NCBI GenBank assembly: GCA_035527715.1
Contig: DATKZY010000096.1
Coordinates: 4,350-68,349, forward strand
Source of the DNA: Planctomycetota bacterium
GTDB lineage: Bacteria; Planctomycetota; PUPC01; DSUN01
Direction: 5' to 3'
DNA: 64,000 bases
In this document: piece by piece, positions 3 to 61,488 of the stretch
How the letters are laid out: every line of letters begins with the position of its first letter
How positions within the stretch are numbered: the first letter of the stretch is position 1
Notes under the pieces: model-generated
Database searches by the model: none
What the model saw: only the letters and a program-made list of their open reading frames with translations
What the model was told of the DNA's origin: nothing
Translations under genes and position numbers: made by a program

Positions 3-290
3 TTCTACACGATCACCAGCACCACCCCCGACAAGCGCCGCGCGACCCGCCTCAGGAGCTTCGTCCTCGACCCTGCCTCGCGACCCGCCGTCGTGGACCA
101 CGGCGAGCTGACCGACCAGGACGGCCGCGCCTGCCACGGCATCTGGGGAATGGACGTCCGCGACGGACGCGTCTTCATGATCGGCCGCTGGCTCGCCAGG
201 CCGGGCGAGGAGAAGACCATCGGCGTGGACCGCCACGGCACCTTCTTCACCGTCATCTTCTCCGTCGCGGATGTTTCGGCGGACCGGTGA
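3..290 (+). CDS. C-terminal fragment of an upstream gene (partial, unknown function)
   Basis: Frame 3 is open from the window edge to TGA at 288-290. The translation (...ACHGIWGMDVRDGRVFMIGRWLARPGEEKTIGVDRHGTFFTVIFSVADVSADR*) has mixed, protein-like composition. The stop overlaps the start region of the next gene. Confidence 0.4.
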   Translation, partial: FYTITSTTPDKRRATRLRSFVLDPASRPAVVDHGELTDQDGRACHGIWGMDVRDGRVFMIGRWLARPGEEKTIGVDRHGTFFTVIFSVADVSADR

Positions 291-327
291 TCTCGGCACG
301 CGCGGAGGGTGCCTCGACGGGGCACGC

Positions 328-2919: not shown

Positions 2920-2924
2920 CCTGA

Positions 2925-2954
2925 CCTCCCGCAGGTTCCAATACCTGCGGGAGG
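2925..2954. promoter_or_regulatory. Intergenic hairpin (CCTCCCGCAGG-TTCCAATAC-CTGCGGGAGG)
   Basis: Perfect 10-11 bp inverted repeat lying between membrane protein A and protein B. Confidence 0.5.
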
Positions 2955-2989
2955 TTGGCGGGGACAGCGGGTGCCTTGTTCCGACATTA

Positions 2990-3021
2990 CCCTCCCGCGG
3001 GTATTGGAACCCGCGGGAGGG
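2990..3021. promoter_or_regulatory. Second intergenic hairpin (CCCTCCCGCGG-GTATTGGAA-CCCGCGGGAGGG); its loop is the reverse complement of the first hairpin's loop
   Basis: Same stem family as 2925-2954 in the opposite orientation, about 35 bp away, just upstream of the RBS-like GGGAGGGAATAGG and the ATG at 3034. Confidence 0.5.
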
Positions 3022-3033
3022 AATAGGTGAGCG

Positions 3034-8202: not shown

Positions 8203-8278
8203 CGCGTGACGCGTGATCAGAGAAGAACAGAACCGCGCTCTTCTGGTCACGGGTCACGCGTCACAGGTCACGCATCAG
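8197..8278. repeat. Long imperfect hairpin built on the GTGACGCGTGAC motif (arms GTGACGCGTGACGCGTGATCAGAGAAGA and TCTTCTGGTCACGGGTCACGCGTCAC)
   Basis: An inverted repeat of about 28 bp with a 12-nt loop, sitting exactly at the junction between the stop of gene B (8200-8202) and the start of gene C. Same family as 12262-12345 and 41905-41925. Confidence 0.6.
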
Positions 8279-8291
8279 ACGGGCGAACACA

Positions 8292-10319
8292 GTGAGCGAC
8301 GAGCAACCCAACCCGAACCCCTCCCACCTTGTCGTTGACAAGGAACTGGAGGAATACCGGAACCTCGTGGAGACGCCCACGAGCTTCGGCTCGGGGTTCA
8401 CGTGGACCTCGGTGTTCGGCGCGCTGTTCTGCGGCCTGCTGATGTTCCCGGGCGCGATCTACCTGGGGCTGCTGTCGGGCATGGGGATGAACGCCGCGGC
8501 CACGTGGGTGACGGTGATCGTGTTCTCCGAGCTGGCGCGGCGGGCGCTGCGGGCGATGACGCGGGAGGAGATGGTCATCCTGCTGATGGTGGCGAGCGCG
8601 ATGATCGGCGGCAGCGCGCTCATCCCCGGCGGGCCGTTCGGCCAGCTCATCTGGCGGCAGTTCCTTGTCACGTCCGACGCGGCGCGGGACGCCGGGCTCT
8701 ACGGCCGTTTCCCGTCGTGGTTCGCCCCCGCGCCCGATTCGCCGGCGCTGGTGGACCGCACGTTCCTGCACTCCGACTGGGCCGTGCCCATCGCCCTGCT
8801 GGTGTTCATGACCGTCATCGGCTTTGTGAAGCAGTTCACGCTCGGCTACGCGCTGTTCCGCCTGTGCTCGGACGTCGAGAAGCTGCCCTTTCCGATGGCG
8901 CCCGTGGGCGCGCAAGGCGTCACGGCCCTCTGCGAGGGCGAGAAGGGCGAGCGCACGTGGCGCTGGACGACTTTCTCGCTGGGCGCCATGCTCGGCGTGG
9001 CCTTCGGCATCGTCCAGGTCGGCGTGCCCGCCGTGTCCAGCGCCTTCCTCGAGAAGCCGATCCTCATCCTGCCCATTCCGTGGTTCGACCTCACGCGGGT
9101 CACCGAGAGCATCCTGCCCGCGACGCCGACCGGGATCATCGTGGACATCGGGCTGATCCTGGTGGGCTTCGTCATCCCGTTCTGGGCCGTCGTCGGCTCG
9201 GCGCTCTCGGTGGGCATGACCTTCGTGCTCAACCCCATCCTCTACCGCGTCGGCGTGCTGGCCTCGTGGAAGCCGGGGATGGACACGATCAACACGCAGA
9301 TCTGCAACTCGATTGATTTCTATTTCAGCGCGGGGATCGGCATGGCGCTGGGCGTGGCGGCGGTGAGCGTGTTCCAGACGGTGCGCCAGCTCCGCAAGTC
9401 GCTGCGGGAGCTGCGGGCGCGGCGGCGGGAGGGCGGGGGCGGCTCGCTCTGGGCGACGCCGCCTGGGCGTGGCGACTGGTCGCTGAAGCTGTGCCTCGCC
9501 GGCTACGCCCTGGCGGCGGGGGCGGTGGTGGTCGCCTGCAAGCTCCTCGTGCCCGGCTTCCCGGTGTTCTTCCTCATCCTGTTCGCTTTCGTCTACACGC
9601 CGCTGACGTCGTACCTGAACGCGCGGATCTCGGGCATCGCGGGGCTGCACATAGACATCCCATTCGTCCGCGAGGCATTCATCCTCCTCTCGGGCGCGCG
9701 CGGCGTGGACCCCTGGATCGCGCCGATCCCCATCGAGAACTACGGCGGCATGGCCCAGAGCCTCCGCACCCTCGAGCTGACCGGCACGAAGCTGACCGGC
9801 CAGGTGAAGGCCTGGCTGCTCACGACCCCGCTCATCTTCGTCCTGTCGTTCGTGTTCTGGAGCTTCCTGTGGAAGGACGCGCCGATCCCCTCCGACCTCT
9901 ATCCCTACGCGCAGAAGATGTGGGACCTCAATGCCAAGAGCACGATGATCCTCTGGACGGCCACGACGGGCGAGCCGGGCACGGTGACGCTCTTCGAGCG
10001 GTCGTTCCATCCCGAGTTTCTGGGGGCAGGTTTCGGCTTCTCGGTGCTGCTCTTCACGGTGCTCTCGACGTTCGGGCTGCCGACGATGCTGGTCTACGGC
10101 CTCGCGCGGGGCTTGGGCGCGATGCCGCACGGGCTGTTGCTGGAGTTGACGGGCGCCCTCCTCGCGCGCTTCTATCTCCACAAGCGGTTCGGCCGCAAGC
10201 CGTTCCTGCTCGCCGCCCCGATTCTGCTGGCGGGCTACCTGGTGGGCACCGGCCTCATTGGCATGGCCGGCGTTGCCATTCGCCTGATCACCTCGGCCAT
10301 CTCGATGGCCCCGTTCTGA
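8292..10319 (+). CDS. Polytopic integral membrane protein C (unknown function), paralogue of protein A
   Basis: GTG start at 8292 (MSDEQPNPNPSHLVVDKELEEY). At least 12 predicted TM helices. The N-terminal and C-terminal regions both align with protein A. Confidence 0.7.
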   Translation: MSDEQPNPNPSHLVVDKELEEYRNLVETPTSFGSGFTWTSVFGALFCGLLMFPGAIYLGLLSGMGMNAAATWVTVIVFSELARRALRAMTREEMVILLMVASAMIGGSALIPGGPFGQLIWRQFLVTSDAARDAGLYGRFPSWFAPAPDSPALVDRTFLHSDWAVPIALLVFMTVIGFVKQFTLGYALFRLCSDVEKLPFPMAPVGAQGVTALCEGEKGERTWRWTTFSLGAMLGVAFGIVQVGVPAVSSAFLEKPILILPIPWFDLTRVTESILPATPTGIIVDIGLILVGFVIPFWAVVGSALSVGMTFVLNPILYRVGVLASWKPGMDTINTQICNSIDFYFSAGIGMALGVAAVSVFQTVRQLRKSLRELRARRREGGGGSLWATPPGRGDWSLKLCLAGYALAAGAVVVACKLLVPGFPVFFLILFAFVYTPLTSYLNARISGIAGLHIDIPFVREAFILLSGARGVDPWIAPIPIENYGGMAQSLRTLELTGTKLTGQVKAWLLTTPLIFVLSFVFWSFLWKDAPIPSDLYPYAQKMWDLNAKSTMILWTATTGEPGTVTLFERSFHPEFLGAGFGFSVLLFTVLSTFGLPTMLVYGLARGLGAMPHGLLLELTGALLARFYLHKRFGRKPFLLAAPILLAGYLVGTGLIGMAGVAIRLITSAISMAPF

Positions 10320-10320
10320 G

Positions 10321-10443
10321 GAAGACAGGAGGAGGAATGATAGGGAACGCAGGAATGCAGGAAAGGAGAAGAGGCATGGGGACCGCGAAGCCAGTCGGCC
10401 TGGCCGCTCATCTTTCTTCTCCTGGTTTCCTGGCTTCCTTATA
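10321..10443. promoter_or_regulatory. Intergenic purine-rich / pyrimidine-rich complementary tract (potential long stem-loop)
   Basis: GGAAGACAGGAGGAGGAATGATAGGGAACGCAGGAATGCAGGAAAGGAGAAGAGG is followed by CTCATCTTTCTTCTCCTGGTTTCCTGGCTTCCTTATAGG. The two halves are broadly complementary. The tract lies between gene C and the FtsX gene. Confidence 0.35.
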
Positions 10444-10456
10444 GGATCTCTTGACG

Positions 10457-11467
10457 ATGCAGGAGCAGACCATCCTCTCAAGCGCCGACGTGCAGGACCA
10501 GGTGATCCTGCCCCTTCGGGTCGCCGTGGGCATGTGCCTGCGGGGCATTCGCACGCGGCTGGGGCGGTCGGCCATCACGCTGTTCGGCGTGGGGCTGGGC
10601 ATCGCGTTCCTGATGGCCGTGCTGTCGGGCTTCCACATTCAGCGGGCGATGACGGCCGAGGCAGCGAAGGCGCGCGACGTCGAGCGGCGCCTCGCCACGC
10701 TGCGGAGCGAGGTCGGCACGCTCAAGGGCAAGGCGTTCCTCGTGGCGGCACGCGAGCCGGGCGAGGCCGACTCGGCCTTCCTTCGCGCCCTCGCCGCGCA
10801 GGGCGCGGCCGTCCACGCGACCACGCTCGCCCAGCCGTCGGACGTCAGAGTCAGCGGCGCCCTGCTCCTGGGCAACTACGAGCCGCTGCTCGCGTCCGCC
10901 CCACCTGCCGTGCTCGCGGCGCAGCCGCTCTTCGCCTTCGGGAAGCCGACGCCAAAGGCAGCCGAGCGCGTGGCGGCAGCCAGCGGGCGGCTGCGGCATC
11001 TCGGCATCGAGCTGCGTCCCGAGGAAGTCGCCCAGGCGGCCCGCCGCGAGCGTCAGGCCACGTATCGCATGGCCTGGATCGTCGCGGTGTCGCTCCTCAT
11101 CACGGTCGGCTGCATCGCCAACGCGATGTTGATGTCGGTCACTGAGCGCTTCCGCGAGATCGGCACGATGAAGTGCCTGGGGGCGCTCTCCAGCTTCGTC
11201 GTCAAGCTCTTCCTCATCGAGAGTCTGCTGATGGGCCTGGTGGGCGCGGTGCTGGGCGTGCTGCTCGGCGTCGCCTTCCCGCTGCTGGCCTACGGCTACA
11301 CGTTTGGCGCGGCCAAGGTGTTCGTGGCCGTGGATTTCGCGACGCTCGGCCTCTACGCCCTGCTGTGCGTGGCGGCGGGGGTCGTGCTGGCCATTGTGGC
11401 GGCGATCTATCCCGCACGGGTCGCGGCGAAAATGGTGCCCGCCGCGGCCCTGGCGTCGCATGTCTGA
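10457..11467 (+). CDS. FtsX-family ABC transporter permease (second, conventional-size permease subunit)
   Basis: ATG at 10457 (MQEQTIL...); an in-frame TTG at 10451 is the alternative start. The N-terminal TM (RSAITLFGVGLGIAFLMAVLSG) and the C-terminal FtsX motif (FREIGTMKCLGALSSFVVKLFLIESLLMGLVGAVLGVLLG) are both present. Confidence 0.75.
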   Translation: MQEQTILSSADVQDQVILPLRVAVGMCLRGIRTRLGRSAITLFGVGLGIAFLMAVLSGFHIQRAMTAEAAKARDVERRLATLRSEVGTLKGKAFLVAAREPGEADSAFLRALAAQGAAVHATTLAQPSDVRVSGALLLGNYEPLLASAPPAVLAAQPLFAFGKPTPKAAERVAAASGRLRHLGIELRPEEVAQAARRERQATYRMAWIVAVSLLITVGCIANAMLMSVTERFREIGTMKCLGALSSFVVKLFLIESLLMGLVGAVLGVLLGVAFPLLAYGYTFGAAKVFVAVDFATLGLYALLCVAAGVVLAIVAAIYPARVAAKMVPAAALASHV

Positions 11468-11481
11468 TCTGGAAGCAATCT

Positions 11482-12261
<780 letters not shown>

Positions 12262-12264
<3 letters not shown>

Positions 12265-12345
12265 CTCGTGACGCGTGACGCGTGGTCGGAACGCAAGCTG
12301 GCTTGCTCTCTTCCTGTCACGCGTCACGGGTCACGCGTCACGATG
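12262..12345. repeat. Long hairpin of the GTGACGCGTGAC family between the two ABC ATPase genes
   Basis: Arms CGTGACGCGTGACGCGTGGTCGGAA and TTCCTGTCACGCGTCACGGGTCACGCGTCACG, with an inner small hairpin GCAAGCTGGCTTGC. It begins at the stop of ATPase 1. Confidence 0.6.
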
Positions 12346-12373
12346 CCTGAACCGAAGGGATTGGCTGGAGCAA

Positions 12374-13120
<747 letters not shown>

Positions 13121-18182: not shown

Positions 18183-18623
18183 CTCCACCCCCCCGCTCAC
18201 CGCGACGCGTTTGGAGGCGATTTGGGGCCTCCGGCGCCGGCAAAGGGGCTTCGGGGCCGATTTCCACAAGCGTCCCGAGATACTACACTTACGCTCCCGG
18301 GAGCCCTCTCCCCGGGGCTCGAAGGTATCAGGAGCCCAGTGTCCCTCTCCGGACGCGTTGTACGCGTTCCTACGCAGTTTTCCGGAGCAAGGTTGTAAGC
18401 CATTGGCATGCAGATACTTAGCAGTGTCATATAACGGTACGCTCTTGGCTGTGCGGCATGTTGCCCAAATGGGATTGCTCGCCCTTCACGGCGCCACCAC
18501 GACTGGTTCACGCCAGACATTCGTCCCGGGGTCATTCTGAGCGAAGTGGCACGGAGCGAAGAATCTCGGCTCATCCGCCCCGAGCGATCATCCGCGCGGC
18601 TCTCGACCCGCGTCTCGCCCACC

Positions 18624-18662
18624 AGGCGCTCACGTGTGCGCTATGGGGGGTGAGCGCCTAGC
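18624..18662. repeat. Palindromic element copy 1: AGGCGCTCAC-gtgtgcgctatggggg-GTGAGCGCCTAGC
   Basis: 12-bp stem with a 16-nt loop, inside a roughly 1-kb lower-GC noncoding region. A near-identical copy lies at 18759-18797. Confidence 0.6.
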
Positions 18663-18758
18663 TGGGGGCGGCCGAGCAAGCGGCATGGCAGCCCTAAGAG
18701 CCTGATCTGCCAAAGGTTACAGCCAGTGGAGAGTCCCACACAGCTGGCTAGTTGCGCT

Positions 18759-18797
18759 AGGCGCTCACGTGTGCGCTATGGGGGGTGAGCGCCTAGC
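18759..18797. repeat. Palindromic element copy 2 (TAGGCGCTCACGTGTGCGCTATGGGGGGTGAGCGCCTAGC)
   Basis: Identical stem and loop to copy 1, 135 bp downstream. Confidence 0.6.
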
Positions 18798-19166
18798 GCG
18801 GGGCGCCTGGGTGGGCCGCTCCGGGCGATCGCTTGAGGCGGATGAGCCAGATTTGACACCCGTCTATGGGCTTGCACCCCTGGGCCAGGAGAGATGCTTC
18901 GCTTCGCTCAGCATGACCGCGGTCGGCGCTGGCCTCGGGGCGTCGGGGTCGTTCGGGCAGCGTTCGGCGCGTGAGGCGGCTTGGGCAACACGCCCTATGG
19001 ACCCCGGTCGAGGCGGGGTGAAGCGGTGCGGGAGGAGGCGCTGCAATGGATGCCAACCGCGCATCGCCCGGGTTGGCATTCATTGCGGGGCGGGCGTCGC
19101 GGAGGACTTGCCCGGCCCCCAGACGCAGTTCCGCACGGGGAAGCGCAGGCATCCCGCGGCTGCTCC

Positions 19167-20891
19167 TCAGGGCTTCGGTTCCTGGAGCTGACGGGCGAGG
19201 GCGCCGACGGCGGCGTGGTCGGCAAGCGAGCGAGCGAGGGGTTGGGCGCGCTCCAGCGCGGCCCGGGCGGCGTCGCGACGGCCGAGGGCGAGCTCCGCGC
19301 GGCCGAGGGCGAGCCAGGGCTCCAGGCGCTCGGGAGCCAGCTCCGTGCTGCGGCGATAGCCTTCGGCGGCCTCGGCGAGGCGTCCCAGGGCCTCGAGGGC
19401 GCGCCCGAGCGCGAGGTGGCCCTCGGCCGCCTTCGGGTCGAGCTGGATGGCGCGGCGGAAGCACTCGATGGCGCGGTAGAAGCGCCGCTGGCTGTGGTGC
19501 CAGTGGCCGCAGGCGAGGTGCACCTGGGGATTCGCGGGGTCGAGCTGGAGCGCGCGCGCGAAGTCGCGCTGGGCGCCCGTCTCGTCGCGGCGGCTGGCGG
19601 CAAAGGCGGCGAGGCGCAGGCGCACGGCCGGGTCGTCGGGGTGGCGGCTCGCCGCTTCGGCCAGCTCGGCCAGCGCCAGGGCCACGTCGCCGTGGTGCGC
19701 GTAGGCGTCCACCAGGCGCCCGTGGGTGACGGCCGAGCGGTCGCCGAGGTCGAGCGCGCGCTGGTAGGCCCGCGCGGCGTCGCCGAACTGGCCCGCGACC
19801 ATCAGCGCGTCGCCCAGCAGGCGGCGGGCGAGCGGGCTGTCGAGGTCCAGCTCCATCGTCTCCCGGTGCAGGGCCACGGCGCGCTCGGGCTGGCCGAGGC
19901 CCACGTAGGCGTCTCCGAGCAGGGCGCGGGCCTCCATCTGGAGCGGCTCGCGCTTCACCACGCCGTCGAGCACCGCGATGGCCGCCTCGCACTGCCCGCC
20001 GCGGACCAGCGCCGCGCCGAGGCAGAGCTGGCCGGCGAGCGACTGCGGCTCGGCTTCGAGGCCCCGCCGCGCCTCGGCGAGGGCGTCGTCGGTGCGGCCG
20101 ACGGCGAGCAGGCAGGCCGAGAGCTCGAAGCGCAGCGGCGTCCGCTTCGGGTCGCGTGCGAGCAGCTCCGCGAGCAACGCGACGGCCTGCGCGGCCCGGC
20201 CGGTCACGCGCGCGACCCAGGCGAGGCCGCGGCGCGCGGCGAGAGCCGTTTCGGGCACCCCGCTGAGTTCGCGGAACGTGGGTTCGGCCTCCTCGGGCTT
20301 GCCGTTGGCGGCCAGTGCGGTGGCCAGGGCGAGGCGCGCGTGCGGGTCGTCGGGGAACCGCTTTGCGGCGAGCCGGGCCTGGTCGAGCGCCGCCTCGGGG
20401 CGGCCCGCCTGCTGCTGGAGCGCGGCCAGGTTGACGCAGGCCGCGGGATCGCTGGGGTCGGCGCGGATGGCGCGCTGGTACGTGCGCTCGGCCGCGCGGA
20501 GGCGCCCCGCGGCGGCATAGGCGGCGGCGAGGTTGTTGAGGTAAGCGGCTGGCGGGCGCCCGCGGCTGGCGCGGCGGAAGCGGGCGACGGCCTCCTCGAC
20601 GCGTCGCTCCTCGTAGGCGATCAGCCCCAGGCCGTTGTGGGCGGCGGCGAGGTGCGGCGCATCGCCGAGGGCAAGCCGGTAGAGGCGTTGGGCCTCGGCT
20701 CGACGCCCCGCCTCGAGCGCGTGCAGCGCCTCGTCGGCCCGGCGGGCCGCCCGCTCGCGCGCGGCCCGACGGGCCGGCGAGGAGCAGCCGCAGAGCGCGA
20801 GCACCGCAAGGAGCGCCAGCCAACGCCGCGCAGGGGATTCAGGACTCAGGGCTTCGGCGCGGGCGCGCTGTCTCCACTCCGCAATCCGCAT
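19167..20891 (-). CDS. TPR-repeat lipoprotein
   Basis: Start MRIAEWRQRA, with a lipobox-like LAVLALCGCSS, followed by at least 12 TPR-like repeats (AxxxxGxALxxxGRxxEAxxxYxRALxLDP pattern). The real frame lies inside the much longer shadow ORF 19167-21614. Confidence 0.7.
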   Translation of the reverse strand: MRIAEWRQRARAEALSPESPARRWLALLAVLALCGCSSPARRAARERAARRADEALHALEAGRRAEAQRLYRLALGDAPHLAAAHNGLGLIAYEERRVEEAVARFRRASRGRPPAAYLNNLAAAYAAAGRLRAAERTYQRAIRADPSDPAACVNLAALQQQAGRPEAALDQARLAAKRFPDDPHARLALATALAANGKPEEAEPTFRELSGVPETALAARRGLAWVARVTGRAAQAVALLAELLARDPKRTPLRFELSACLLAVGRTDDALAEARRGLEAEPQSLAGQLCLGAALVRGGQCEAAIAVLDGVVKREPLQMEARALLGDAYVGLGQPERAVALHRETMELDLDSPLARRLLGDALMVAGQFGDAARAYQRALDLGDRSAVTHGRLVDAYAHHGDVALALAELAEAASRHPDDPAVRLRLAAFAASRRDETGAQRDFARALQLDPANPQVHLACGHWHHSQRRFYRAIECFRRAIQLDPKAAEGHLALGRALEALGRLAEAAEGYRRSTELAPERLEPWLALGRAELALGRRDAARAALERAQPLARSLADHAAVGALARQLQEPKP

Positions 20892-20916
20892 TCCGCAGTT
20901 CGCAATCCTGAGGGGG

Positions 20917-22044
20917 CTACTTGCCGGGGTAGCTCTCGAACTTGGCGATGAGCCGCCAGAGGCCCTGCACCTCGCCGCGGTGGAAGCACTGCTCGGGGTA
21001 CCAGCTATTGAGGGGGCGCAGCCGCACGACGTTATTGGCGTCGAAGAAGACCTGGCGGAGGGCGCTGCCCTCGCGGGTGACGACGAAGGCGAGGTCGCCG
21101 CTGCGCGCCGGCACGTTGGGCGAGAAGACCACCACGTCGCCCCGGTCGAACGACGGCGCGCCGCTGTGCCGCATCGTGTTGTCGTGGATTTCCAGGGCGA
21201 AGGCATCGCGGTCGGTGATGCCGGGCAGGAGGAGCTGGCCCTTGGGCGCGCCGCGCAGGAGGAGCCCCGCGTCGGCCTTCGTCTCGATGCCGGCGATGAG
21301 GTCGTAGAGGGGGACGGACGCCGGGGGCTCGGGCCTCGACGGCTCCTGGGCCTCGGGCGCGGCCTCGGCTCGGGGGAGGGGCGGCGGCGCGGACTCGGCC
21401 TCCTTCGGCGCTCCCTCGACGGCGGGCGCCTCCTCCTCCGGGGGGGCCGGCGGCGTCTCGGCAGCCGCGGGCGCATCAGGGCCGGCGACGGGAGCGGGCG
21501 GCGCCGACGGCTCGGCCGGCACGCCCGGCGGCGGCGTCTCGCCGCTGGGGGCCTCGGCGGGGGCTGGCGAGGGCTCGCCCTCCGCCGCGTCGTCGTAGAC
21601 CCGGGGCAGCTCACCCGCCGCGGGCGGCTCGATATGGAGTGGGAACCGCCGCGCGAGGGCCGCCTCCATCTCGCGCTTGCGCTGGTCGGGCACCGACCAG
21701 TGGCGCTCCTCGAGCGAGCGCAGCAGGCTGATGTCCTCCGCCGACGGGCTCAGGAAGCGCACGCCCATGCGGTACGAGCTGCGGTCGGCGACGCGCTTCG
21801 CCCACACGACCTCGCCGTGCGCGATCAGCGCCCGGAAGGCGCTGGGGATGATCACCTTCAGGTCCAGCCGCTGCCCGACCTCGTACAGATCGTCGCTGAC
21901 GAACTGGAGCCCTGCGACCGACAGGTCAATGAGGGGGGAAACCTTGGGCGCGCCCTTGAAGAACGACAGGGCCGCATGCTTGCGGTACTCGACCGTGGAG
22001 TCCTCGACCGCAAAACGCCGGTTTCGTCTGCCGCGTATCGGCAT
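20917..22044 (-). CDS. PilZ domain protein fused to a LexA/S24-peptidase-like C-terminal domain whose catalytic residues appear substituted
   Basis: PilZ motifs RGRRNRRF (RxxxR) and DLSVAGLQF (DxSxxG). A Pro/Ala/Glu-rich linker follows, then an S24-like block IHDNTMRHSGAPSFDRGDVVVF (GDSM -> DNTM) and VVRLRP where LexA has the catalytic Lys (K -> R). The start MPIRGRRNRRF corresponds to a CAT at 22042-22044. Confidence 0.65.
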   Translation of the reverse strand: MPIRGRRNRRFAVEDSTVEYRKHAALSFFKGAPKVSPLIDLSVAGLQFVSDDLYEVGQRLDLKVIIPSAFRALIAHGEVVWAKRVADRSSYRMGVRFLSPSAEDISLLRSLEERHWSVPDQRKREMEAALARRFPLHIEPPAAGELPRVYDDAAEGEPSPAPAEAPSGETPPPGVPAEPSAPPAPVAGPDAPAAAETPPAPPEEEAPAVEGAPKEAESAPPPLPRAEAAPEAQEPSRPEPPASVPLYDLIAGIETKADAGLLLRGAPKGQLLLPGITDRDAFALEIHDNTMRHSGAPSFDRGDVVVFSPNVPARSGDLAFVVTREGSALRQVFFDANNVVRLRPLNSWYPEQCFHRGEVQGLWRLIAKFESYPGK

Positions 22045-22138
22045 GCCCTCTGCCCTCCGTCGCGGCTCAGCAGCCGCGGACAGCCCGCCCGATGCCCCAT
22101 TATTGTAGTGCTGGCCGCGGCGCGTGTCAATAGCAGCC

Positions 22139-22166
22139 TTGACGTTTGCGGGCGCGCCACTATAAT
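22139..22166 (+). promoter_or_regulatory. Strong sigma70-like promoter: TTGACG, 16-nt spacer, TATAAT
   Basis: TTGACG at 22139-22144 and consensus TATAAT at 22161-22166, in the divergent intergenic region between the PilZ gene and the GspE-like ATPase. Confidence 0.65.
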
Positions 22167-22197
22167 CAGGGTGTTCCCACGGGTAGGGGCAACGACA

Positions 22198-23259
22198 GTG
22201 GAGCGCTCTGCGCCCGAAGTGCTCGAGGAGCTGGTGCGATGCGCCGAGGCCGGCGGCGCCAGCGACATCCACCTCCACAGGGGGCCGGAGCGCACCGAGG
22301 TGGCCTTCCGCCTCGACGGCTGCCTGGCCCGCGTGGAGGCCCTGCCCGACGAATTGGCCCGGCACGTCTTCGGGCGCATCAAGTACCTCGCCCGGCTGAA
22401 GACCTACCAGGAGTCGCTCCCCCAGGAGGGGCGGATCGAGAAGGCCAACCTCGGGGCGCGGAGCGACGTCCGCGTGGCCACGTACCCCACCGTGACGGGC
22501 GAGAAGATCGTCCTGCGGCTCTTCTCGTCGTGCGAGGTGCTGGCCCTCGAGCAGCTCGGCCTGCGACCCGACGCCCGGGCGGCCCTCGAGGGCTTCCTGG
22601 CCCGCCCCGCCGGCACGCTGCTGCTGACCGGGCCGGCCGGCAGCGGCAAGACCACCACCATCTACGCCTGCCTCCAGCACCTGGCCGCCCGCACCGGCCG
22701 CCACATCATCACCATCGAGGACCCCGTCGAGCAGGTGGTCCCCGGCGTGATGCAGACCGAGGTGAACCCGGCGGTGGGCCTCGACTTCGCCAAGGCGGCG
22801 CGGCACCTGCTGCGCCAGGACCCCCAGGTGCTGGTCCTCGGCGAAATCCGCGACGAGGAGACCGCCAACCTCGCGCTCCGGGCCGCCTTCACCGGCCACA
22901 TGGTCATCTCCACCCTCCACGCCGGGTCGTGCCGGGGCGTGTTCGAGCGCCTGTTCGGCATGTGCGACGACCGCTACGCCGCCATCGCCGCCGTCGAGAT
23001 GATTCTCAACCAGCGCCTCGTCCGAAAGCTCTGCCCCCAGTGCGGCGGGGAGGGCTGCGACGCCTGCCTCCGCACCGGCTACCGGGGCCGCGTGCCCGCC
23101 GTCGAGTGGCTGGCGCTGGACGAGTCGCTGCGGGCGCGGCTCCGCGAGCAGGGCGCCGCCGCCGCGGCCCCGACGCCGCCCCTGGAGGCGGAGGGGCGGC
23201 GCCTCGTCGCCCAGGGCATCACCAACGAAGCCGAATATGCGAGGGTCTTCGGGCCGTGA
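22198..23259 (+). CDS. GspE/PilB-family secretion ATPase, core domain only (no N-terminal N1E/N2E domains), with a C-terminal CxxC...CxxC
   Basis: ASDIHLHRG (compare ASDIHIEP), Walker A LLLTGPAGSGKTTT, Asp box, Walker B VLVLGEIRDEE and His box TGHMVISTLHAG are all present. The GTG at 22198 lies about 30 nt past the -10 box; the start is uncertain and an in-frame GTG at 22171 is the alternative. Confidence 0.8.
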   Translation: MERSAPEVLEELVRCAEAGGASDIHLHRGPERTEVAFRLDGCLARVEALPDELARHVFGRIKYLARLKTYQESLPQEGRIEKANLGARSDVRVATYPTVTGEKIVLRLFSSCEVLALEQLGLRPDARAALEGFLARPAGTLLLTGPAGSGKTTTIYACLQHLAARTGRHIITIEDPVEQVVPGVMQTEVNPAVGLDFAKAARHLLRQDPQVLVLGEIRDEETANLALRAAFTGHMVISTLHAGSCRGVFERLFGMCDDRYAAIAAVEMILNQRLVRKLCPQCGGEGCDACLRTGYRGRVPAVEWLALDESLRARLREQGAAAAAPTPPLEAEGRRLVAQGITNEAEYARVFGP

Positions 23260-24251
23260 AGCACGACGAATTCGCCTTCTTCAACGAGCAACTCGCCCAC
23301 ATGCTCCGCGACGGCATTCCGCTGGAGGGCGCCATGGCGGCGCTTTGCCGCAGCATGCGGCGCGGCCGGCTGCGGGCCGAGCTGGACGCCTTGCGGGCCG
23401 CCCTCGCCAGCGGCACGCCCATCGAGGAGGCGCTCGCGAGCCGCCGCCTGCCGACCCTCTACACGAGCATGGTCAAGGTCGGCGTCAAGGCCAACAACCT
23501 CCCCGCCGTCCTCACGCGGCTGGCCGACCACTACCGCGAGACGGGCGCCGTGTGGGCGCGGCTCAAGGGCCTGCTCGTCTACCCCGCGCTCGTCCTGGCG
23601 CTGGCGTTGGGCGTCTCGGTGTTCCTGGCGCTCTACCTGGGGCCGGCGTTCGCCGAGTTCGCTGAGGATAGCGGCTTCCTCAGTCTCGGGGGCGGTTCGT
23701 CCCTCCTGGGCGTGCGGCTCGTGGCCGCGCCGGCGATCGTGGCCGGGCTGCTGGTGGCCCTGGTGGCGGCGCTCGCGCTGCGGCCGGTGCGGCGGTGGCT
23801 GCGGTGGCGCCTGTCGCCGCTCAAGGAGGCCAGCCTGGCGCAACTGGCGTCGGGCCTGGCCTTGATGCTCCGCGGCGGGTGCAGCCTGGCCGATGCCGTG
23901 GCCCTTCAGCGCGAGCTCGAGGGGCGCACCCTGGCGGGGGCCGACCTCGCCCGCATCGGCGAGCGCCTGGCCGACGGCGCCACGCACTTCAGCGAGATGG
24001 CCGAGGACGCCGTGGCGCTCCCGCGGCTGTTCGTGTGGATGGTCGAGAACGCCGGCGAGGACATGGCGGGCGGCTTCGAGCGTGCCGCGCTGCTCTACCG
24101 CACGCGCGCCGGCCATCGCACCGAGATGCTCCTCTACGCCGCGCTCCCGTGCTCGATCCTGGTGCTGGGCGGCATGCTCCTCGCCCAGGTCTCCGCGGTC
24201 CTCCTGCCGCTCATCGAGCTGATGCGGCAGATCGGCGGGGGTGGAATGTGA
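23256..24251 (+). CDS. Type II secretion system F-family (GspF/PilC-like) inner-membrane protein 1
   Basis: GTG start that overlaps the GspE stop as GTGA. The N-terminus FFNEQLAHMLRDGIPLEGAM resembles the T2SSF domain, and three TM segments are predicted. Confidence 0.75.
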   Translation: MKHDEFAFFNEQLAHMLRDGIPLEGAMAALCRSMRRGRLRAELDALRAALASGTPIEEALASRRLPTLYTSMVKVGVKANNLPAVLTRLADHYRETGAVWARLKGLLVYPALVLALALGVSVFLALYLGPAFAEFAEDSGFLSLGGGSSLLGVRLVAAPAIVAGLLVALVAALALRPVRRWLRWRLSPLKEASLAQLASGLALMLRGGCSLADAVALQRELEGRTLAGADLARIGERLADGATHFSEMAEDAVALPRLFVWMVENAGEDMAGGFERAALLYRTRAGHRTEMLLYAALPCSILVLGGMLLAQVSAVLLPLIELMRQIGGGGM

Positions 24252-24261
24252 GTGCACGCCC

Positions 24262-25560
24262 ATGATGCCCGTGGCCTGCCCCCTGGCGCCGCCCGCCTTC
24301 ATTCACCCATACACCACGGTCGTGGTCACCGACGGGCTTCTGGCCCTCCTGAAGGTGCTCCTGTGGGTGTTCGTCACGGTCGTGGTGCCGTACGTGGTCT
24401 ATCGCCTCATGTCGCTGCCGCTGCGGCGGCAGGAGCGGGCGCGGCTGTTCCTCGACGTGCTGGAGAGCGCCGTGGCGCGCGGCAAGAGCGCGGAGGAGGC
24501 GCTCGTGTCGCTCGCCGCGATCGAGCCGCTCGGCGTGCTGGCGCGGTTCGGGTGGCTCGGCGCCCTGCTCTTCCGCTGGCCGTATCACCTCTTCTGCGGC
24601 GTGTTCGGCATCCGGCGCGACGAGGTGGTGTTCGGCAGGGGCGTCCGCAACGTCGGCGAGCGGCTGATGAACGGCGTGCCGCTGCACGAGGCGGTCGAGC
24701 CGCGCGACAACCTGCTGCCCGCCCAGGTGATCGCCACGCTGCGCGTGGGCGGCGAGGTGGGCGACCTCACGAAGGTGCTGCCGGCGTGCCGGCAGGTGCT
24801 GGCCGACGCGGCCTCGCGCACGCGGGCCGCGATGAACTACCTGGCGCTGATGCTCATCGGCGCCTCGTTCCTGGCGCTGCCCGTGCTCGCCTGGATGAGC
24901 CTCCGCGTGACCCCCCTGTTCGAGGAGATGATGGGGGACATGCGGTTCTCGATGCCGCCGGTCTTCGGCCTCCTGCGGGGGCCGGGGGACTACCCGTGGG
25001 TCTTCCTCGCCATGCTCGCCGTGGCAGCCGTGCTGTTCGTCGGGGCGCTGCTCTACATGGGCGGGCCGAGGCTCGTGCGGGCGCTGCGGCTGGGCCCGGC
25101 CGCGGGCTGGCTCCAGTACCACCTGCCCTGGCGGCGGAAACGGCTCCAGCGCGACTTCTCGGCCATGCTCGCCATCCTGCTCGACGCCGGGGCGCCTGAG
25201 CCCGACGCCGTGGCGAAGGCGGCCCAGAGCACGGCCAACCCGCTTCTCCTCCGCCGCGCGACGCGGGCCACGCTGGCGATGAAGCGGGGCGACCCGCTCA
25301 CCGAGGCCGTGGCGCGGCTGGACGACTCGGGCGAGTTCCGCTGGCGCCTGGCCAACGCCGCACACGTGGGCACCGGCTTCGCCGAGGCCCTGGCCGGCTG
25401 GCAGCAGTCGCTCGACGCCCGGGCCTTTCAGCAGGAGCAGGCCGCGGCGCACGTGATCACCAGCGCGATCACGCTCGTCAACGGCCTGGTCGTGGCCCTC
25501 GTGGCCCTTGGAGTGTTCCAGTGCCTCATGACCGTCATCAACGCGTGTCTGCCCTGGTGA
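24262..25560 (+). CDS. Type II secretion system F-family (GspF/PilC-like) protein 2
   Basis: Start MMPVACPLAPP, with GTG 24241 as the alternative start. TM helices alternate with cytoplasmic T2SSF-like helical bundles (LPAQVIATLRVGGEVGDLTKVL). Confidence 0.7.
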   Translation: MMPVACPLAPPAFIHPYTTVVVTDGLLALLKVLLWVFVTVVVPYVVYRLMSLPLRRQERARLFLDVLESAVARGKSAEEALVSLAAIEPLGVLARFGWLGALLFRWPYHLFCGVFGIRRDEVVFGRGVRNVGERLMNGVPLHEAVEPRDNLLPAQVIATLRVGGEVGDLTKVLPACRQVLADAASRTRAAMNYLALMLIGASFLALPVLAWMSLRVTPLFEEMMGDMRFSMPPVFGLLRGPGDYPWVFLAMLAVAAVLFVGALLYMGGPRLVRALRLGPAAGWLQYHLPWRRKRLQRDFSAMLAILLDAGAPEPDAVAKAAQSTANPLLLRRATRATLAMKRGDPLTEAVARLDDSGEFRWRLANAAHVGTGFAEALAGWQQSLDARAFQQEQAAAHVITSAITLVNGLVVALVALGVFQCLMTVINACLPW

Positions 25561-25916
25561 GAGGGCGCCGCTCGGGGTTCGCCCTGATCGAGCTGACGGT
25601 CGCCGTGGGCGTCCTGGCGGTCGTGATGGCGGCGTTCGCCGTCGCCTGCCACACCGACCAGCAGGCCCTCCGCGCGAACTACTACCGGGCCATCGCCATC
25701 GAGATCGTGGACGGCGAGATGGAGGCGCTGGTCGCGGGCGAATGGCGCGCGGTTCCCGAGGGCGCCCACGCCTACCCGGTGCGCGCCGACGCCGCACGGA
25801 ACCTGCCCGACGGGCGTTTCACCCTCACCCTCGCGGGGCGGCACCTGCGCCTCGAATGGGCGCCCGCGCGCTCCGGCAACGGCGGATGCGTCGTCAGGGA
25901 GGCCGAGGTCCGATGA
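25557..25916 (+). CDS. Pseudopilin with a prepilin-type N-terminal cleavage/methylation motif
   Basis: RRSGFALIELTVAVGVLAVV is the classic GF-x-LIE type IV pilin class III signal. Its start overlaps the upstream stop as GTGA. Confidence 0.7.
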   Translation: MRGRRSGFALIELTVAVGVLAVVMAAFAVACHTDQQALRANYYRAIAIEIVDGEMEALVAGEWRAVPEGAHAYPVRADAARNLPDGRFTLTLAGRHLRLEWAPARSGNGGCVVREAEVR

Positions 25917-26395
25917 ACGTCGCACGCTCATCCCGCCGCGGCTTGACCCTCATCGAGCTGCTCGTCTACATGGGCGTGCTCACCATCGTCGTCGGGGTCG
26001 CCTGGCTCGTCTACTACCGGTGCATCGAGCACTCGCTCGGCGTGCTGCGAAACGTGGACGACATCACCCGCGCGCTCAAGTCGGGCGAGCGGTGGCGGAC
26101 CGAGGTCCGCCGTGCCACGGCCCCGCCGCGGCTGGTGGACGGCGTGCTGCACGTCGCCACGCCTGACGGCGACGTGCTGTTCAAGTTCGCCGGCGACGCC
26201 GTGCTGCGGAAGGGGGCCGCGGAGGCCAGGTGGGCGCCCTTCCTCCCGAAGGTCAAGGCATCCAGGATGCAGCTCGACGAGGGCAAGCACGTCAGCTCGT
26301 GGCGCTGGGAGGTGGAGCTGGAGAGCAGGGCGAAGGCGGGCATCCGCCCCCTGTTCTCGTTCCGCGCGGTGCCGAGCGGCCGCGCGCCGAGGTGA
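25913..26395 (+). CDS. Second pseudopilin with a prepilin-type N-terminal motif
   Basis: RRGLTLIELLVYMGVLTIVVGVAWLVYY. Its ATG overlaps the upstream stop as ATGA. Confidence 0.7.
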   Translation: MNVARSSRRGLTLIELLVYMGVLTIVVGVAWLVYYRCIEHSLGVLRNVDDITRALKSGERWRTEVRRATAPPRLVDGVLHVATPDGDVLFKFAGDAVLRKGAAEARWAPFLPKVKASRMQLDEGKHVSSWRWEVELESRAKAGIRPLFSFRAVPSGRAPR

Positions 26396-26398
26396 CCC

Positions 26399-26593
26399 AT
26401 GCTCGAGGGAAAACGCAGGCGGACCCGGCGACGCAGGGGCGTGGGCCTGATCGTGGTCCTCGTGCTCATGGCCGTCACGGCCACCTACGTGTTCACGAAC
26501 GCCGCGGCGCTCCACAGGCTCAAGAGCTACCTCGACCTCGTCGAGCGGCAGCACAGGGCGCGGCACGCGACGCCCCCGCCCGCCAGGCCGTGA
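26399..26593 (+). CDS. Small single-TM protein (64 aa), possibly a minor T2SS-module component
   Basis: ATG 3 bp after the pseudopilin stop. Basic N-terminus plus one TM helix (GVGLIVVLVLMAVTATYVF). Confidence 0.4.
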   Translation: MLEGKRRRTRRRRGVGLIVVLVLMAVTATYVFTNAAALHRLKSYLDLVERQHRARHATPPPARP

Positions 26594-31683: not shown

Positions 31684-32730
31684 TCAGACCGTGGCGCCTT
31701 GCCGCAGTTCCATCGCCACGCGGAACAGGGCTTCCACGTTGGGCCAGGGGAAGCCGGGGTCAATCTCGATGTAGAGCCAGGAGCCGCCGGCGGCGGGGCG
31801 GAAGATGTCCACGAGGCGCAGCACGTGGTCGCGCACCTCGGCGGGCGAGCGGCGCTGCATCAGGTCGCCGCGGTCGGGGTGAAGTTCGAGGGCAATGCCC
31901 ATCTCGCGGCAGCGCCTGGCGAGCTCGGGCAGGTCGAAGACCGTAAGCTGAGGCCAAAGGGCGTCCACGCCAAGCTCCGAGAAGTCCTCCAGGATGTCGC
32001 CGATCTGGCCGCAGCAGTGGAAGAAGATGTGTTTGCCCGCCTTGCGGATCGGCTCGAAGAGGGCCTCATAGCGCGGCTTGTAGAAGCGGCGCCACACCTT
32101 CGGCGGCAGGAGCAACGCCTCCTGCGTGCCGAAGTCGTCGCCGAACGCCACGCCGTCCACGTCGAGCGCGAGCGAGCGGCGGACGCCCGCGGCGGTGTGC
32201 TCGACGAGCAGGTCGGCCAGGCGGTTGATCTCCGGCGTGTCGCGGAGGATGTCCACCAGCGTGTCCTCGAAGCCGCGGAGCGACCAGAGCTTCTCCATCA
32301 GGCTCCCGCTGCCGCCGAGGGTGAACCAGCGGCGCTTCTGGGCGGCGACGCTGGCCCGGACCTTCTCCACGTCCGGCCCCTCGGCCGTCGGTGGCGGAGG
32401 CGGCTTGTAGGCGTCGAGCCGGCCCATGTCGCGCAGCGGCCAGTCAATCAGGTGGCCCCAGACGCCGAAGATGCGATACTCCCAGGTCGAGCCCCACTCG
32501 TCGGTCTTGATCGTGTGGTAGCGGCCGTCGGGGTCGAAATCGCCGGGCGGCGGCCCGGCGGGGAGCGTCACGCCGCTCAGGTCGCCGAAGTCGTGGCCAC
32601 AGGCCCTCGTGAGGTCGAGCAGCTTCTGCCCGTGCTCGTAGAGGCCGCCCACGGCCGGCAGAATCCGCAGCGGCACCACGTCGGGCGGGCGGAAGTCGAG
32701 GGCGGCGAGGACGCGTTCGCGGGGCAGCAT
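31684..32730 (-). CDS. Uroporphyrinogen decarboxylase (URO-D) family protein (MtaA/CmuA-like)
   Basis: 348-aa protein with URO-D-like fold signatures. It abuts the IMPase stop (stop at 32731-32733, start at 32728-32730). Confidence 0.75.
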   Translation of the reverse strand: MLPRERVLAALDFRPPDVVPLRILPAVGGLYEHGQKLLDLTRACGHDFGDLSGVTLPAGPPPGDFDPDGRYHTIKTDEWGSTWEYRIFGVWGHLIDWPLRDMGRLDAYKPPPPPTAEGPDVEKVRASVAAQKRRWFTLGGSGSLMEKLWSLRGFEDTLVDILRDTPEINRLADLLVEHTAAGVRRSLALDVDGVAFGDDFGTQEALLLPPKVWRRFYKPRYEALFEPIRKAGKHIFFHCCGQIGDILEDFSELGVDALWPQLTVFDLPELARRCREMGIALELHPDRGDLMQRRSPAEVRDHVLRLVDIFRPAAGGSWLYIEIDPGFPWPNVEALFRVAMELRQGATV

Positions 32731-37379: not shown

Positions 37380-38459
37380 CTATCGCTTCCGCCCACGCGC
37401 CTCCTCGTCAATCACCCGCGAGATGGCCAGCATGTTGGCCTGCCAGCGGCCATCGGGAATGTCCTCGGTGATGCCGATGATCAGGCGATTACCCGGGGCA
37501 GCCTCGCGGAGGACCTGCCGCGTCGTCGCCTCGATCTTCTCGATCGAGGCCAGGTGGAGCGACGAGGGGAAGTTGATCCAGAGCACCTTGCCCGGCCAGG
37601 CGGCCAACGCGTCGGTCGCGCTCATGTCCGTGTCGGGCGACGGGGTGAATGCCTCGACGTAGTCGAGGCCCGAGCCCGCCACGGCCTTCGCCCAGAGGCG
37701 GTTGTTGCCGTCGAGGTGGGCGCCCACGAGCTTGCCGTGGCGGTGGAAGACTTCCGCCGCCTCGTTGTAGAGGGGCACGACGTATCGCTCGAAGCGCTCC
37801 TTGCCCATGACCTCGGGCACCTCGTTGCCGCCGTAGTTGGCGTGGAGCGCGGGCGAGGCGGCGACGAGGGGGTAGATGCGGCGCTGCTGCTCGACCATGG
37901 CGTCGTAGAGCCGCAGCACCTCGTCGCGGCGCTCGGCCCACTCGACGGCGAACGCCTCGTGGCCCATCCAGTGGATCATGATCTCGTGGAGCGGCGTGAG
38001 GCCAATGCCGGCGCGGAGGATGAAGTCCTCGCCGAGCATCGCTTCGGCCTCGGCAAACGCCTCGTAGGCCGGCTCGTGGCGCTGGTCGTTGACCAGGAAG
38101 AGCAGCGGCCTGTAGTCCTCGGGCCGCTTGAAGAGTCGCTCGAGCTTCCACGACGTGAAGCCCGCGGGCTGGTCGAGGCTCGTGAGGTCCCCGACGGGCG
38201 TGTGGATGAGCGTCCGCACCCGCTCCTTGCCGTCCTCGGTGTAGCGGCGGGACTCGGTGGTCACGTTGGGCCGGGTGGTGTTTACCACGCCGCAGCGGTG
38301 GACGATGCAGAGGCCGTCGTTCCGCAGTTGCCGCTCGACGACGCACTGGGGCACCATGCCCTGGTACATCGTCAGCGGCGTCTTGTCGGGCACTTCCTGC
38401 CGCAGCACCATCTCGACCCGGCGGCGGGGGGTGGTTTCGGCTGGCGAGCGTTTCCTCAT
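37380..38459 (-). CDS. URO-D family protein, paralogue 2
   Basis: 359-aa ORF similar in style to 31684-32730. The start is uncertain; an internal MVLRQEV is the alternative. Confidence 0.65.
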   Translation of the reverse strand: MRKRSPAETTPRRRVEMVLRQEVPDKTPLTMYQGMVPQCVVERQLRNDGLCIVHRCGVVNTTRPNVTTESRRYTEDGKERVRTLIHTPVGDLTSLDQPAGFTSWKLERLFKRPEDYRPLLFLVNDQRHEPAYEAFAEAEAMLGEDFILRAGIGLTPLHEIMIHWMGHEAFAVEWAERRDEVLRLYDAMVEQQRRIYPLVAASPALHANYGGNEVPEVMGKERFERYVVPLYNEAAEVFHRHGKLVGAHLDGNNRLWAKAVAGSGLDYVEAFTPSPDTDMSATDALAAWPGKVLWINFPSSLHLASIEKIEATTRQVLREAAPGNRLIIGITEDIPDGRWQANMLAISRVIDEEARGRKR

Positions 38460-48175: not shown

Positions 48176-48192
48176 CGAAGAGGGAAGAGCTG

Positions 48193-60555: not shown

Positions 60556-60578
60556 GCCCGAATCCCGGAGTGCTGGCC

Positions 60579-61391: not shown

Positions 61392-61437
61392 GAGCCTGTC
61401 CGAGAATCCGCGTGAGGCTGCGACGCCGGCGATTCTG
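61389..61437. repeat. Second copy of the post-stop conserved element (see 57488-57535)
   Basis: Direct alignment to copy 1, beginning at the TAG of the T2SSE_N gene. Confidence 0.6.
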
Positions 61438-61488
61438 GCCGCACGCGAGGCAGGCGGCACCCCACGACACCAGGGATTGCACACAGCC

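Follow-up and report, generated by a model that had tools for sequence, protein, structure and literature searches.

Does a short cluster of secretion-type genes in a Planctomycetota genome represent a fragment of a conventional operon, or the core of a machine in its own right? We addressed this question for six genes on contig DATKZY010000096.1 of a Planctomycetota bacterium, which encode an ATPase, two platform proteins, two prepilin-type proteins and a 64-amino-acid (aa) single-helix protein. The sequence studied, referred to here as the window, is 64,000 nucleotides (nt) long with ∼70% G+C, and the operon occupies positions 22198-26593 on the plus strand. At such a G+C content, raw lists of open reading frames (ORFs) consist mostly of spurious frames, and genes were placed by analysis of third-position G+C (GC3). 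The resulting layout matched the public gene calls for the identical ENA contig gene for gene, with concordant Pfam assignments. At 100% identity, the ATPase matches a protein from a metagenome-assembled genome labelled 'Planctomycetota bacterium'.

Conservation of the six-gene module

The first gene (22198-23259, plus strand, as are the other five) encodes a GspE/PilB-type ATPase of 353 aa, the same length as in the public call, which matches Pfam PF00437 (T2SSE) over positions 10-369 of the 370 in the model (E=5.5e-89). It is followed by the genes for a GspF/PilC-like platform protein of 331 aa (platform protein 1, 23256-24251; Pfam T2SSF, E=2.2e-27) and a GspF-like platform protein of 432 aa (platform protein 2, 24262-25560; T2SSF, E=1.4e-12), each matching the family in two stretches. 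The next two genes encode prepilins with class III signals, one GspI-like (119 aa, 25557-25916; N_methyl, E=2e-5; N-terminus RGRRSG/FALIEL) and one GspJ-like (160 aa, 25913-26395; N_methyl, E=1.8e-6; N-terminus RRG/LTLIEL). The last gene (26399-26593) encodes a transmembrane protein of 64 aa with no match in Pfam or NCBIfam.

A sigma-70-type promoter, TTGACG-16-TATAAT, lies ahead of the ATPase gene at 22139-22166 (plus strand) and agrees with the consensus at 11 of 12 positions; promoter-like sites numbered 3 in 9.6 kb, against 0.1 expected from shuffled sequences. In the closest relative (locus L004), TTGACA-17-TAGAAT aligns at the same position. Stop and start codons overlap at three of the five junctions (GTGA at 23256-23259 and at 25557-25560, ATGA at 25913-25916), the remaining two being a 10-nt gap between the genes for platform proteins 1 and 2 and a 3-nt gap between those for prepilin 2 and the 64-aa protein. 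The six genes are thus predicted to form a single transcription unit, read from this strong promoter and translationally coupled by the overlaps. An earlier reading of this DNA from its letters alone (the sequence-only reading) had described the same strong promoter, the GTGA/ATGA overlaps and a gene set made up of a GspE-family ATPase, two GspF/PilC-like proteins, two prepilin-type proteins and a small transmembrane protein, and our analyses bear it out on each of these points.

To place the cluster in context, a collection holding one genome per species was scanned and gave 532 confirmed matches. The loci analysed were the best 80 of these 532, mostly from Verrucomicrobiota (Limisphaerales, 'subdivision 3') with a few from Planctomycetota. 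The window proteins were compared by tblastn with 83 loci, comprising the 80 from other genomes and three copies of the window's own region. The ATPase, platform protein 1, platform protein 2, pilin 1 and pilin 2 were detected in 83, 80, 75, 73 and 73 of the 83, respectively, and the order ATPase-F1-F2-I-J was kept in essentially every sufficiently long locus. A profile search placed a homologue of the 64-aa protein immediately behind the GspJ-like gene in 69 other loci, among them L004, L006 and L008 of the Planctomycetota; gene presence in the high-GC Planctomycetota loci was scored by tblastn together with profile matches. The ATPase is 63-83% identical across the two phyla (∼65% between Planctomycetota and Verrucomicrobiota) and is therefore under strong purifying selection. 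Given that loci of other genomes repeat this gene set in the same order, the six genes appear to be a functional, lineage-typical design and not an operon fragment. The view of a compact module rather than a conventional operon fragment, put forward in the sequence-only reading, thus agrees with the recurrence of set and order in ∼70-80 of the 80 loci.

The flanks of the module vary by lineage, and the six- to seven-gene set is the sole constant across loci. In L004, whose ATPase is 83% identical, synteny with the window takes in the L,D-transpeptidase and sulfatase-maturing genes downstream, and the upstream side is different. The Verrucomicrobiota loci (L009-L081) carry a seventh gene after the homologue of the 64-aa gene, encoding a protein of ∼92 aa with two hydrophobic segments, which was found neither in the window nor in the three Planctomycetota loci that reach past the sixth gene. 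These Verrucomicrobiota loci usually also contain, ∼1 kb upstream of the ATPase gene, genes for an extracytoplasmic function (ECF) sigma factor and a small membrane protein (a putative anti-sigma factor), a pair that is not present in the window. A second ATPase-platform pair belonging to the same protein clusters was observed on the opposite strand in one locus (L043), ∼10 kb upstream, and some genomes have a paralogous copy.

The motor, platform and pilin-like proteins

Because the ATPase lies near EpsE (1.9e-66), Thermus PilF (1.2e-63) and PilB (three entries, 9.4e-61 to 1.9e-59) in PDB sequence searches and far from PilT (4.3e-30), it appears to be a motor of the assembly (extension) type and not of the retraction type. 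Its best NCBIfam matches, GspE (TIGR02533; 307 bits, cut-off 630) and PilB (292 bits), were both under cut-off, and the ComGA model scored lower than either (214 bits, cut-off 300, model positions 2-266 of 267). The GspE model matched with E=2e-91 and the TadA-family model with only E=8e-10. The Walker A motif and four cysteines (C279, C282, C287 and C290) are invariant in 24 relatives; such a four-cysteine motif is a metal-binding motif typical of GspE and PilB.

Residues 16-283 of the ATPase align to residues 131-398 of EpsE, and the protein begins at about EpsE residue 116. T2SSE was the sole Pfam match, and neither Pfam nor the EpsE alignment revealed an N1E or any other N-terminal domain. 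The comparison shows an ATPase predicted to lack N1E only, keeping N2E and the catalytic domain, and to have no MshEN domain. The 120 best relatives are all 341-415 aa long and 63-83% identical, and clustering of a protein library at 50% identity leaves a single full-length representative of the family. Since all 120 are short and N2E is present, the length of 353-370 aa appears to be a family-wide state rather than a truncation. The sequence-only reading, which had both N1E and N2E missing, was right about the former and mistaken about the latter.

Beyond this family, other short ATPases are 45-52% identical and canonical GspE/PilB proteins of 450-600 aa are 40-47% identical. One of the short relatives (L086, 52% identity) is followed by two platform genes. 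Another (L089), a GspE-type ATPase of 369 aa and 45% identity, lies in a cluster with the order small proteins, secretin, ATPase and one platform gene, with ComEC close by; with its secretin, single platform gene, ComEC and otherwise different gene set, this locus was rejected as an instance of the same system and represents a distinct compact system from another lineage. The best ATPase matches also included proteins of ∼980-1050 aa with four matched stretches (P0277-P0293), seemingly tandem fusions of two GspE-type ATPases.

The two platform proteins are only 30% identical over 187 aa. Platform protein 1 covers positions 61-400 of the 401 in the NCBIfam GspF model and matches PilC and EpsF in PDB. 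Platform protein 2 has a bare PDB match to PilC (1e-4) and carries an extra N-terminal hydrophobic segment. Scores against the GspF model TIGR02120 were 111 and 33 bits, respectively, for a cut-off of 424. The GspF inner-membrane platform feature of the Gsp systems is thus present in the form of two T2SSF proteins. Since identity has fallen to 30% and each gene holds a fixed position in all loci, the comparison shows two full-length GspF paralogues that would have diverged anciently by an old duplication, with both copies maintained, as expected of a heteromeric platform.

Gly at -1 and Glu at +5 are conserved in both pilin families. The best matches of the predicted pilin structures were GspJ and GspI of type II secretion, and the Thermus competence pilins TTHA1219 and TTHA1222 were also among the top matches; for the GspJ-like pilin these comprised XcpW/GspJ (11.0), TTHA1219 (10.4), GspJ (10.4) and EpsJ (10.3). 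The structural models thus show pilins 1 and 2 to be GspI-like and GspJ-like in predicted fold, in the gene order of gsp operons. The GspI-like family, for which 223 homologues were found, has a near-invariant EIVDGEME..AGEW motif.

In the alignment of its homologues, the 64-aa protein consists of a basic leader, a conserved Gly before the helix, a hydrophobic helix that lacks Glu5 and an amphipathic helix, likewise conserved. A missing Glu5 is what typifies GspK, and in characterised systems a complex of the I, J and K proteins primes filament assembly. The alignment shows a predicted pilin-like, helix-only and Glu5-less protein at the GspK position (here mini-K), without the globular domain of GspK. 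Curated Pfam or NCBIfam models exist for neither the J-like family, the 64-aa family nor the globular part of the I-like family.

Absent components and neighbouring genes

Among the ∼50 ORFs of the window and its short flanks, Pfam gave no match for Secretin, Peptidase_A24, T2SSG, GspL, GspM, GspC or PilMNOP, nor did it find a PilT-type retraction ATPase, a second ATPase, PilQ or a major pilin in the window. Motif scans for secretins and A24 peptidases were negative in the window and within 10 kb of the module in the 80 loci (1.46 Mb); the sole A24-like match in these loci (L031) was due to chance. The gene families that recur across the 80 loci likewise included no PilT, PilMNOP, PilQ or major pilin. 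These results uphold the statement of the sequence-only reading that no secretin, prepilin peptidase or GspL/M is encoded in the 64 kb. That reading had also envisaged a full set of components just outside the window, in which case the module would be a mere fragment; no type IV filament genes were found in the flanks covered, namely 4.6 kb ahead of the window and ∼0.9 kb of the 38 kb by which the ENA contig runs past it.

A second promoter, TTGACA-17-TACAAT (22130 to 22102, minus strand), lies outside the module. It is as strong as the operon promoter and escaped mention in the earlier note; the two point away from each other, with 8 bp between their -35 boxes. It faces a minus-strand gene (20917-22044) for a 375-aa protein made up of a PilZ domain (Pfam, E=5e-10), a Pro/Ala/Glu-rich linker and an S24-like domain (Peptidase_S24, E=4.5e-9). 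The next gene downstream (19167-20891, minus strand) encodes a 574-aa protein that matches Pfam TPR families and has a probable lipobox, LALCGC. The PilZ domain keeps the cyclic di-GMP (c-di-GMP) motifs RRNRR and DLSVAG. Compared with the C-terminal domain of lambda cI, the S24 domain has Thr (HDNTM) at Ser149 and Arg (ALRQV) at Lys192; because these replace the catalytic Ser and Lys, it is probably not a self-cleaving protease, and the earlier label '(pseudo)S24' is a reasonable one. The TPR protein had only generic sub-threshold TPR matches in NCBIfam, such as PilW (112 bits, cut-off 154), as well as similarity to Tgl.

In the 80 loci from other genomes, L004 included, the PilZ-S24 and TPR genes are absent from beside the module. 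Conversely, in four metagenome loci with a PilZ-S24 protein 69-79% identical to that of the window (L090-L093), the TPR gene follows in all four and no ATPase or platform match was found; for one of them the sequence reaches 6 kb upstream, a stretch that encodes sulfatases. Because the pair is missing beside the module elsewhere and occurs without it in these four loci, the two genes appear to be a conserved unit of their own, whose adjacency to the module is lineage-specific. The divergent layout reported by the sequence-only reading was correct; a partnership of these genes with the module is not supported.

A similar outcome applies to an MshEN (formerly T2SSE_N) protein of 270 aa (60579-61391; PF05157, E=9e-10). 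As reported earlier, it stands alone beside a STAND protein; the proposal that it completes a truncated GspE finds no support, given that the ATPase keeps N2E, that its short length is family-wide and that tblastn detected no MshEN homologue in the 80 loci. No more than one c-di-GMP-binding motif, and that a degenerate one, can be made out in the protein. Its gene lies between those for a STAND-type AAA_16+TPR protein (58069-60555, 828 aa) and an RsbW-like HATPase_c_2 kinase (282 aa), and the row of STAND, MshEN and RsbW-like proteins (58069-62337) may be a signalling cassette unrelated to the operon.

Upstream of the module, just past the TPR and PilZ-S24 genes that L004 lacks, a region of ∼1 kb (18183-19166) has lower G+C and no coding signal. 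It contains nested inverted repeats (18455-18468/18981-18994, 18526-18546/18902-18922 and 18568-18594/18822-18848) and, at 18625 and 18760, an exactly duplicated 38-nt hairpin unit. As RNA, positions 18450-19000 fold with z = -6.25, with no Rfam or tRNA match; an Rfam scan of the whole window at gathering thresholds and a tRNA scan likewise gave no matches. The region could be an element resembling a miniature inverted-repeat transposable element (MITE), or an insertion scar.

The wider surroundings encode sulfatases, sulfatase-maturing enzymes, GH32, GH4, a heparinase-like protein and transporters. Positions 271-13120 hold genes for a DUF6785/DUF6784 membrane protein and a 1722-aa protein that combines M28 peptidase and FtsX domains, after which come a 675-aa protein that matched nothing, another FtsX protein and two ABC ATPases, a group that resembles an unusual ABC-type export or extraction system. 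Three URO-D-like paralogues (31684-32730, 37380-38459 and 48163-49344) are scattered amid the sulfatase and carbohydrate genes, which is not a context of haem biosynthesis.

Relation to known machines and possible function

The module shares several features with the Gsp/Eps/Xcp systems of Proteobacteria: an ATPase with N2E, catalytic domain and four cysteines, a GspF platform, one operon with overlapping genes, an I-like gene followed by a J-like gene as in gspI-gspJ, and a protein without Glu5 where gspK would be. It differs in that the ATPase lacks the GspL-binding N1E domain, that there are two divergent GspF paralogues instead of one, and that the 'K' protein is of ∼60 aa and lacks a globular domain. 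Furthermore, GspC, D, G, H, L, M and O are found neither at the module locus nor within 10 kb in the 80 loci, and the NCBIfam GspE and GspF scores reach only about half and a quarter, respectively, of the equivalog cut-offs. In common with the ComG system of Firmicutes (ComGA-ComGG), the module has an ATPase of ∼350 aa that lacks N-terminal accessory domains, an operon free of secretin genes, several small pilin-like proteins after the platform genes and a peptidase encoded elsewhere (assumed for the module). However, its host is diderm, it has two platform proteins, its pilins are GspI/GspJ-like and no ComGC-type major pilin was identified. The two adjacent platform paralogues and the very short, helix-only pilin-like protein recall Tad/Flp systems, but TadB and TadC are half-size whereas both module proteins have two T2SSF stretches, the ATPase is of the GspE/PilB type with four cysteines and not of the TadA type, and RcpA, TadV and TadZ are lacking. 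From the type IVa pilus the module is distinguished by an ATPase without MshEN/GSPII N-terminal domains and by the absence of PilT, PilMNOPQ and a major pilin from the window.

A planctomycete operon with some resemblance is Plim_0410-0401 of Planctopirus limnophila, an essential, type II secretion-like gene set that encodes GspE, PilT, GspE, one platform protein and six hypothetical proteins (PMC10632474). Both are operons of the type IV filament kind with generic annotation, lineage-restricted small proteins and no annotated secretin. They are set apart by gene content, as judged from the annotated genes, and on that ground Plim_0410-0401 was rejected as an instance of the same system.

For minimal clusters, Denise, Abby and Rocha (2019) defined a 'generic' class of type IV filament systems and noted that peptidases and secretins can be encoded apart (PMC6668835). 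With a GspE/PilB-family ATPase, GspF/PilC platform proteins and pilins with class III signals in one cluster, the module has the generic features of such systems and would fit a model of ATPase, platform and pilin with optional secretin and peptidase. The text of that survey mentions neither Planctomycetes, Verrucomicrobia nor the PVC superphylum, and the subtype described here is neither defined nor placed in it. Our literature searches for this module in Planctomycetota and Verrucomicrobiota returned nothing specific.

Taken together, these results make it probable, as judged from sequence comparison, that the six genes encode the cytoplasmic-membrane core of a type IV filament machine specific to Planctomycetota and Verrucomicrobiota, comprising its motor, a heteromeric platform and the minor pseudopilins for priming; its major subunit, its peptidase and an outer-membrane pore, if there is one, would be encoded elsewhere or absent. 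The hexameric ATPase, which lacks N1E and has no gene for a GspL partner in its vicinity, would dock directly on a heteromeric F1/F2 platform. Once cleaved by a prepilin peptidase encoded elsewhere, the I-like, J-like and mini-K proteins would form a tip complex that primes filament growth, and the machine would then polymerise a major subunit, likewise from another locus, into a short pseudopilus in the periplasm. Its output may be secretion through a distant secretin, or the display or extraction of the abundant prepilin-type proteins of both phyla. A bolder version, which we hold to be possible though doubtful, is that of a separate machine class, confined to these two phyla and defined by a minimal ATPase and a double-GspF platform, without a GspL/M- or PilMNO-type alignment complex or a secretin, and primed by I, J and mini-K; it would handle the prepilin-type H-X9-DG/DUF1559 proteins, whose families are very large in both phyla, and possibly have a housekeeping or essential role in the envelope. 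These prepilin-type proteins, on which our searches found almost nothing published, are attractive clients.

Several points weigh against the probable reading as a membrane core. That the major pilin, peptidase and secretin are 'encoded elsewhere' is an assumption, the motif scans for secretins and peptidases were crude, and Pfam matched nothing in several of the large ORFs nearby. The ground for an F1/F2 heteromer is the fixed adjacency of the two genes and nothing else. The link to the H-X9-DG family is weak, since H-X9-DG prepilin-like genes lie within 10 kb of the module in only ∼14 of the 80 loci, a count that comes from protein clustering, which, unlike a strict sequence pattern, does not miss copies with Ala at -1. 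Finally, the main subunit of the filament could be the GspI-like protein itself, whose acidic motif is invariant.

This last possibility is part of an alternative that we judge rather unlikely, in which the six proteins and a shared peptidase form a self-sufficient, secretin-independent machine resembling ComG of single-membrane bacteria, building a short filament that acts solely in the periplasm and peptidoglycan or using an outer-membrane route other than a secretin, with the GspI-like protein as main subunit. The ComGA-like short architecture of the ATPase, the lack of secretin motifs around the 80 loci, the constancy of the gene set amid varying flanks and the strikingly invariant motif of the GspI-like family all favour it. 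However, secretins and peptidases are often encoded apart (PMC6668835), the hosts have two membranes (PMC10632474), ComG systems have one platform protein and not two, and the ComGA score lies under its cut-off and under the GspE and PilB scores. We consider it improbable that the module is the core of an extracellular pilus serving adhesion, motility or DNA uptake. The ATPase is about equally close to PilB/PilF and GspE, two Thermus competence pilins rank high among the structural matches, and the distant short ATPase of L089 lies beside a secretin and ComEC; yet L089, with its single platform protein, is a different system, type II secretion GspJ and GspI remain the best structural matches, and the retraction ATPase, PilMNOP, PilQ and major pilin of such a pilus are missing from both the window and the recurrent families.

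The arrangement that builds on the sequence-only reading, with a truncated GspE completed in trans by the MshEN protein, c-di-GMP control through PilZ-S24 and the TPR lipoprotein as a pilotin-like helper, appears very improbable. An MshEN domain is indeed encoded, the PilZ motifs are intact, two strong promoters stand back to back and the TPR protein has its sub-threshold PilW and Tgl similarity. These observations are outweighed by the family-wide shortness of an ATPase that retains N2E, by the place of the MshEN gene 35 kb away, between the STAND and RsbW-like genes, with no counterpart in the 80 loci, by the generic nature of the TPR matches and by the separate occurrence of module and PilZ-S24/TPR pair, even in the relative with 83% ATPase identity. 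We give almost no credence to decay, by which the genes would be functionless remains of what was once a larger cluster for type II secretion or a type IV pilus. Many canonical parts are absent locally, as such decay would predict, but the ORFs are intact with a strong GC3 coding signal, the catalytic and signal motifs are conserved, and fixed gene order together with the level of ATPase identity in hundreds of species of two phyla already refutes it.

The module is thus a well-conserved, previously uncharacterised version of a known kind of machine, with the same gene order in hundreds of species; it is among the most conserved type IV filament gene sets of both phyla and has no dedicated family models. 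As a natural case of an ATPase without N1E or GspL combined with two distinct platform proteins, it bears on how GspE and GspF are coupled. The essentiality of Plim_0410-0401 indicates that such systems can be vital in Planctomycetota. Planctomycetota and Verrucomicrobiota are major degraders of sulfated polysaccharides, and the window itself is rich in sulfatases and sulfatase-maturing enzymes, with GH32 and heparinase-like genes. How these phyla export their enzymes is poorly understood, as is the reason for their many pilin-type signal peptides, and the operon provides a concrete, testable candidate for the machinery involved.

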